Assembly (NCBI RefSeq): GCF_003018235.1
Contig: NZ_CP027437.1
Source: Escherichia coli
GTDB taxonomy: Bacteria > Pseudomonadota > Gammaproteobacteria > Enterobacterales > Enterobacteriaceae
Strand: one strand, 5' to 3'
DNA: 64,000 bases
The notes under the pieces are model-generated. The model did not search any database. It was not told where the DNA came from and worked only from the letters and a program-made list of their open reading frames with translations. Numbering within the stretch: the stretch's first letter is position 1; each line of letters opens with the position of its first letter. Positions 18,236 through 52,744 of the stretch are shown here, one piece after another. The position numbers and the translations under genes are program-made.

Positions 18236-18713
<478 letters not shown>

Positions 18714-18794
18714 TGGTTCTCCGTTAAGTAAGGCCAAACGTTTTAACTTAAATGTCAAACTAAACTCGTAGAGTTTTGGACAATCCTGAATTAA

Positions 18795-19280
<486 letters not shown>

Positions 19281-19364
19281 TCCCTTCGGAGTTTTAGTCA
19301 CCAGGCGGGCGCTTCCAGTAAGCAGCCCGCTTTGGGCTACTTAAATTGAACGCCTAAAAGATAA

Positions 19365-21491
<2,127 letters not shown>

Positions 21492-21504: not shown

Positions 21505-22746
<1,242 letters not shown>

Positions 22747-27357: not shown

Positions 27358-29773
<2,416 letters not shown>

Positions 29774-52288: not shown

Positions 52289-52378
52289 AGCCAGCCAATC
52301 TTTTGTATGTCTGTGCGTTTCCATTTGAGTATCCTGAAAACGGGCTTTTCAGCATGGAACGTACATATTAAATAGTAG

Positions 52379-52744
<366 letters not shown>

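Follow-up and report, generated by a model that had tools for sequence, protein, structure and literature searches.

The ribosomal protein S7 differs between strains K and B of Escherichia coli, as has been known since the protein sequencing of the late 1970s. The consequences of the K-12 S7 tail, tagging and weak termination, were reportedly described by Schaub and Hayes in 2011. According to Browning et al. (2023, PMC9997739), the strains EMG2, MG1655 and W3110 have in common an rpsG mutation which gives S7 a C-terminal extension; citing Schaub & Hayes 2011, these authors add that RF2 of K-12 has Thr246, resulting in poor UGA termination and, together with the rpsG extension, in SsrA-tagged S7. 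The MG1655 gene (b3341, NC_000913.3 3473542-3474081) is annotated with 540 nt and 179 amino acids (NP_417800.1), the full long form being given in the curated record, whereas REL606, an E. coli B strain, has a 471-nt rpsG for the 156-aa WP_001138043.1, the extension frame being present but latent behind it. The closest described RNA system lies at the other end of the gene, in the rpsL-rpsG region, which holds the S7 translational operator and couples the translation of S12 and S7. Translation of fusA is coupled to rpsG (PMC10931766). We compare these systems with the rpsG end in a 64-kb stretch of E. coli DNA (64,000 nucleotides, hereafter the window).

The rpsG stop codon in the window and in reference strains

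The str operon lies on the plus strand of the window in the order rpsL-rpsG-fusA-tufA, collinear with the annotation of MG1655. A sigma-70 promoter-like site (TTGACA-17-TAAAAT, plus strand, 18236-18264; 11/12 matches in a consensus scan) is located upstream of rpsL, at what we take to be the position of the str operon promoter. The first gene, rpsL (18339-18713), encodes an S12 identical to that of MG1655 and is followed by rpsG (18810-19280), by fusA (19377-21491), whose 704-aa product EF-G differs from that of MG1655 in one amino acid (A246E), and by tufA (21562-22746). The rpsL-rpsG spacer (18714-18809, the known S7 operator region) and the intercistronic rpsG-fusA spacer (19281-19376, plus strand) are each exactly 96 nt long; the latter includes the fusA Shine-Dalgarno sequence GAGG (19367-19370, plus strand), which lies 6 nt upstream of the ATG and is conserved in the alignment.

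By the open reading frame listing, its translation and the Pfam match, rpsG encodes a 156-aa S7. The protein scores 212.8 bits with PF00177 (Ribosomal_S7; cut-off 24), residues 2-149 corresponding to profile positions 1-148 of 148, and this full-length match together with the location of the gene between rpsL and fusA identifies it as a bacterial uS7. The translation ends with ...AFAHYRW, followed by a TAA at 19278-19280 (plus strand), and the base 3' of the stop codon is T, giving the stop signal TAAT. The stop after Trp156 and a translation identical to WP_001138043.1 assign the gene to the B-type, wild-type allele and not to the 179-aa MG1655-type allele, codon 157 being TAA. Downstream, 22 stop-free codons (19281-19346, plus strand) continue in frame to a TGA (19347-19349); the preliminary description of this DNA gave the HYRW-TAA end, the open codons and the TGA with exact coordinates and the exact peptide. 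By our own arithmetic an open frame of 22 codons is in itself unremarkable ((61/64)^22 is about 0.35), and it is meaningful because it is identical to the K-12 sequence, not because of its length.

When the window was aligned at the stop site with MG1655, W3110-P and two other strains, the 171 nt from 19230 to 19400 differed from MG1655 and W3110-P solely at 19279, the middle base of the stop codon, which is A here and T in MG1655-type K-12. TAA is thereby replaced with TTA (Leu) at codon 157 in MG1655 and W3110, and the MG1655 gene translates to 179 amino acids, just as the preliminary description had stated for the K-12 protein; its counter-case, a K-12 reference rpsG with TAA at this position, does not apply to MG1655, which reads TTA. 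The whole gene differs from that of MG1655 in two bases, a synonymous one at position 117 and the one at position 470 that replaces Leu157 with the stop. Residues 1-156 are the same as in the S7 of MG1655/W3110/EMG2 (NP_417800.1), and the 69 nt of tail plus TGA are identical in the window, but the tail of 23 residues (Leu + 22) is not made in it, codon 157 being TAA instead of TTA. MG1655-type K-12 alone translates the stretch 19281-19349, which there follows Leu157 as residues 158-179; in the window this stretch is untranslated spacer. The attribution of the 156-aa form to E. coli B was likewise borne out, REL606 having the TAA and a translation identical to that of the window. TUM10008 and NCM3722 have the same 156-aa S7, terminated after Trp156 and followed by the same spacer; NCM3722 is a K-12 strain whose stop codon and spacer are exactly as in the window. 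In the 156-aa and the 179-aa forms alike, residue 149 is the last of the Pfam S7 domain, which places the K-12 tail outside the fold. Among the E. coli S7 chains in the PDB, the 179-aa form occurs in 319 entries and the 156-aa form in 44, many deposited chains having only 150-152 residues.

Lineage of the window and direction of the change

The window is 98.60% identical to MG1655 (869 mismatches in 62,048 aligned nt) and 98.46% and 98.01% identical to REL606 in two aligned blocks, and it is collinear with K-12 and B apart from an IS100 insertion. True K-12 strains differ among themselves by 0-2 bases in 24-34 kb; neither the identity of about 99.99% over tens of kb that marks the K-12 lineage nor the near-identity to REL606 that marks the B lineage is seen in the window, and the shared 156-aa S7 does not make it a member of the latter. 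Over window positions 1-25000, the closest of 5,426 complete E. coli genomes reaches 99.2%, which implies that the lineage, or mosaic, of the window is not closely represented among them; only 305 records reach 99% in this part. As judged from these identities, the window belongs to an ordinary E. coli chromosome whose lineage is distinct from both K-12 and B. The preliminary description had deduced a non-K-12 origin from the TAA codon and had proposed whole-window identity to candidate genomes as a check. The origin stands on that identity; the deduction does not, since NCM3722 is a K-12 strain with TAA and the stop codon alone cannot exclude K-12. The rpsG stop marks a strain as not MG1655-type K-12, which is not the same as not K-12.

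The existence of NCM3722 raises the alternative of a K-12 origin on the NCM3722/WG1 branch, where the TAA was kept; the identity at the stop codon and across the spacer would agree with such an origin. The chromosome, however, is only 98.4-98.7% identical to that of NCM3722 (425 and 269 mismatches in two aligned blocks), as against two differences in 34,339 bases between NCM3722 and MG1655, namely the rpsG stop codon and one base in tufA (NC_000913.3 3470733). The window moreover has an IS100 in gspM that K-12 does not have and the A246E change in EF-G, and we regard this origin as extremely unlikely. A misread or misassembled base at 19279 in what is really a K-12-type gene has a probability of practically zero: the difference is indeed of one base, but 5,071 independent complete genomes share this A and the window differs from K-12 at 869 other positions.

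The insertion element (IS21 family; istA, istB) occupies 27753-29706 (1,954 bp), has TGTCA... ends and is flanked by a 5-bp target duplication, GAGAG. It interrupts gspM, a gene of the cryptic type II secretion operon, about 22 codons in; it is not found there in MG1655, REL606 or NCM3722, and other E. coli genomes have IS100 near gspL/gspM. Codon 246 of EF-G (20112-20114) encodes Glu in the window and Ala in the same three strains, and it is flanked by two nearby synonymous changes. A 41-mer covering the codon and both synonymous changes is present in 386 of the 5,426 complete genomes, which argues that A246E is a natural lineage polymorphism.

The rpsG alleles were counted with 41-mers centred on the polymorphic site, every 28-base seed word of which includes the polymorphic base. 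Among the 5,426 complete genomes 5,071 matched the TAA 41-mer and 348 the TTA 41-mer; 5,425 genomes hold the region and six match neither. That most strains carry the 156-aa form, as had been proposed from the sequence of the window, is thus confirmed. Of the 348 TTA genomes a sample was checked for K-12 identity: the 60 listed range in size from 4.46 to 4.74 Mb and most are explicitly named as K-12 laboratory strains or derivatives, the named strains including MG1655, W3110, BW25113, DH5alpha, DH1, HB101, MC4100, TG1, AB1157 and J53 transconjugants. Three TTA genomes are labelled as coming from a coffee plant, a chicken and a lake; over 24 kb their identity to MG1655 is 99.99-100%. In RefSeq, PGAP labels rpsG of K-12 derivatives, e.g. 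W3110-P, as a pseudogene ([quoted passage not shown]), and this label appears to be due to the C-terminal extension.

The direction of the change was read from other species. The end of the S7 gene (GCNTTCGCNCACTACCGTTGG) was scanned in one genome per species, yielding 120 loci from many phyla; in about 110 species with an ...AFAHYRW end, counted at loci where the downstream DNA sufficed, Trp156 is without exception followed by TAA, TAG or TGA, a sense codon being seen in none. This implies that TAA is ancestral and the TTA of K-12 derived, and since NCM3722 has the TAA, the extension arose inside the K-12 pedigree. The K-12 tail is, on these sequence comparisons, a derived laboratory-lineage mutation.

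The opposite polarity, i.e. that a long S7 is ancestral, that the 22 codons are a decaying tail cut off by a nonsense mutation and that K-12 retains the original, could appeal to the intact, stop-free state of these codons and to a similar virtual translation in Citrobacter, Pluralibacter, Kluyvera and others. It is hardly credible in view of the stop after Trp156 in all of the approximately 110 species sampled, in 5,071 E. coli genomes and in the K-12 strain NCM3722 itself. Among 36 other Enterobacterales the frame is open for at least 20 codons in 16 and for fewer than 20 in the remaining 20, four of which have TAATAA, and this early closure argues that there is no coding constraint on the frame; the similarity of the tail is explained by nucleotide conservation of a hairpin with compensatory changes (see below). 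Regulated read-through of the TAA, which would provide wild-type strains with a minor long S7 and the tail with a function, is very improbable, albeit less so than an ancestral long form. While no stop interrupts the frame before the TGA and E. coli genomes share the spacer at 99% identity or more, the frame is not kept across genera, the pattern of conservation is that of RNA pairing and not of codons, and neither a read-through signal nor an Rfam match was found in the spacer. TAAT is invariant in 35 of 35 aligned Enterobacterales sequences, and UAA followed by U is, according to what Poole, Brown and Tate are said to have reported in 1995, the most efficient stop signal of E. coli. The 3' end of rpsG in the window is thus almost certainly ancestral and unmutated, the chromosome being that of an ordinary E. 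coli outside both K-12 and B, and the stop codon as an observation is ordinary, well explained and already known as a long-standing strain polymorphism.

Predicted RNA structure at the rpsG end and in the spacer

In 5,425 of the 5,426 E. coli genomes the segment 19150-19400 (251 bp) has an identity of 99% or more, and most of the genomes sampled are identical. Within the spacer, single-sequence folds and RNAalifold predict a GC-rich hairpin, CCAGGCGGGCGCUU-CCAGU-AAGCAGCCCGCUUUGG (19301-19335, plus strand), which is conserved in Enterobacterales. All free-living genera examined have it in the corresponding position, with a dG of about -12 to -26 kcal/mol, and distant genera have other stem sequences, e.g. 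CUGGGUGGC/GCCACCCAG and GGGUAGCC/GGCUACCC. In 31 aligned sequences, 96.4% of the cells are paired and six of the nine pairs change on both sides, slid controls giving 37-61% and none of 500 shuffles reaching the observed pairing; this alignment was fitted to a covariance model, which favours structure, and RNAalifold, which is unfitted, finds the same helix. The covariance model was used because MAFFT misaligned the short hairpins of Photorhabdus, Morganella, Moellerella and Xenorhabdus in the alignment of 35 spacers; it did not recover the last three genera, whose hairpins rest on single-sequence folds. The compensatory base-pair changes that distinguish a conserved structured intercistronic RNA are therefore present in the hairpin.

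A second, long-range helix is predicted between GGCGUUCG (19256-19263, plus strand), inside the S7 codons Lys-Ala-Phe-Ala, and UGAACGCC (19347-19354, plus strand), which contains the TGA that ends the K-12 tail. The fold of 19240-19395 has a z score of -3.27, with none of 200 shuffles as good, and the long-range helix is present in both the minimum free energy (MFE) and the centroid structures as well as in the RNAalifold consensus. The spacer folded alone is unremarkable (z = -1.25 and -1.63), the fold being significant only when the last rpsG codons are included. The codons AAG GCG in the 5' strand are invariant in 34 of 34 free-living Enterobacterales, as against 8 of 84 in other taxa, which mostly have AAA/GCA, and neighbouring synonymous sites of rpsG vary. 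GAACG is invariant in the spacers of the 34 free-living Enterobacterales and of the window. In two reduced endosymbionts GAACG is absent and GCG is changed to GCA, both being lost together. Both strands of the helix are thus invariant and lack covariation, a state consistent with pairing. On these predictions, the conserved Enterobacterales structure at the rpsG end and in the spacer (19255-19355) consists of the covarying hairpin and a probable 8-9-bp long-range helix.

An intrinsic (Rho-independent) terminator was considered for the spacer and rejected: a consensus scan of 19281-19376 was negative and no run of U comes after the hairpin stem, the next bases being GCUACUUAAAUUGAACG. Another rejected idea is that the UCCCUUC directly behind the stop codon sequesters the Shine-Dalgarno sequence of fusA. 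The UCCCUUC-GAGG pairing is seen in several MFE folds, but when the first 14 nt of 38 spacers were shuffled, typically 10-50 of 100 shuffles equalled the summed pairing probability, the pairing being no better than in shuffles.

At the gathering score Rfam has no family for the rpsG-fusA spacer. In the whole 64-kb window Rfam matches only at 52309-52420, with Alpha_RBS (RF00140, 102.7 bits), the alpha-operon element on which S4 acts as operator ligand; leaders of other ribosomal protein operons (S10, spc, str) had no match in the window. In the literature searched, no enterobacterial rpsG-fusA structure was found, such structures being mentioned only for streptococci and Pelagibacter. The further step, that the 22 "extension codons" may belong to a structured RNA which spans the rpsG stop throughout the Enterobacterales and has so far gone undescribed, is a tentative proposal from these folds and alignments that we consider doubtful. 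Like the S7 operator region, the rpsG-fusA spacer is 96 nt long, lies in the same operon, separates two genes whose translation is coupled and has conserved secondary structure; in contrast to it, the rpsG-fusA element is a predicted structure, and the described role in protein binding and coupling is that of the operator region.

Implications for K-12 and wild-type E. coli

In the strain of the window, S7 synthesis finishes at Trp156 on a UAA in the UAAU context, giving the 156-aa protein, and the 96 nt after the rpsG stop are the untranslated rpsG-fusA spacer. The long-range helix 19256-19263/19347-19354 would enclose both the rpsG stop codon and the hairpin at 19301-19335. Such an element would bring the site of rpsG termination near the fusA ribosome-binding site and so support coupling across 96 nt; alternatively, it would control the processing or stability of the str mRNA. 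We infer that the structured spacer may serve one of these functions, rpsG-fusA coupling or mRNA processing/stability.

On the MG1655/W3110/EMG2 branch, a single A-to-T transversion has changed the rpsG stop to TTA (Leu), and ribosomes continue into the spacer as far as a UGA 27 nt before the fusA start, adding Leu and 22 residues. What is new is that, in the K-12 tail, a conserved and structured spacer is read as protein; the spacer itself would be conserved for RNA-level reasons, the covarying hairpin and the probable long-range helix.

The S7 of MG1655-type K-12 is not wild-type, which is a reminder about the reference strain, and the extension misleads the automatic annotation of rpsG by PGAP. 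Base 19279 is a quick marker of the MG1655/W3110/EMG2 branch of K-12, not of all K-12, NCM3722 being wild-type. If the proposed element is real, MG1655-type ribosomes would translate through it and melt it, terminating on a UGA in the closing helix, and the EF-G:S7 expression or the decay of the str mRNA would consequently differ from that of wild-type E. coli. If the structure of the spacer governs EF-G expression, K-12 would be atypical there too.
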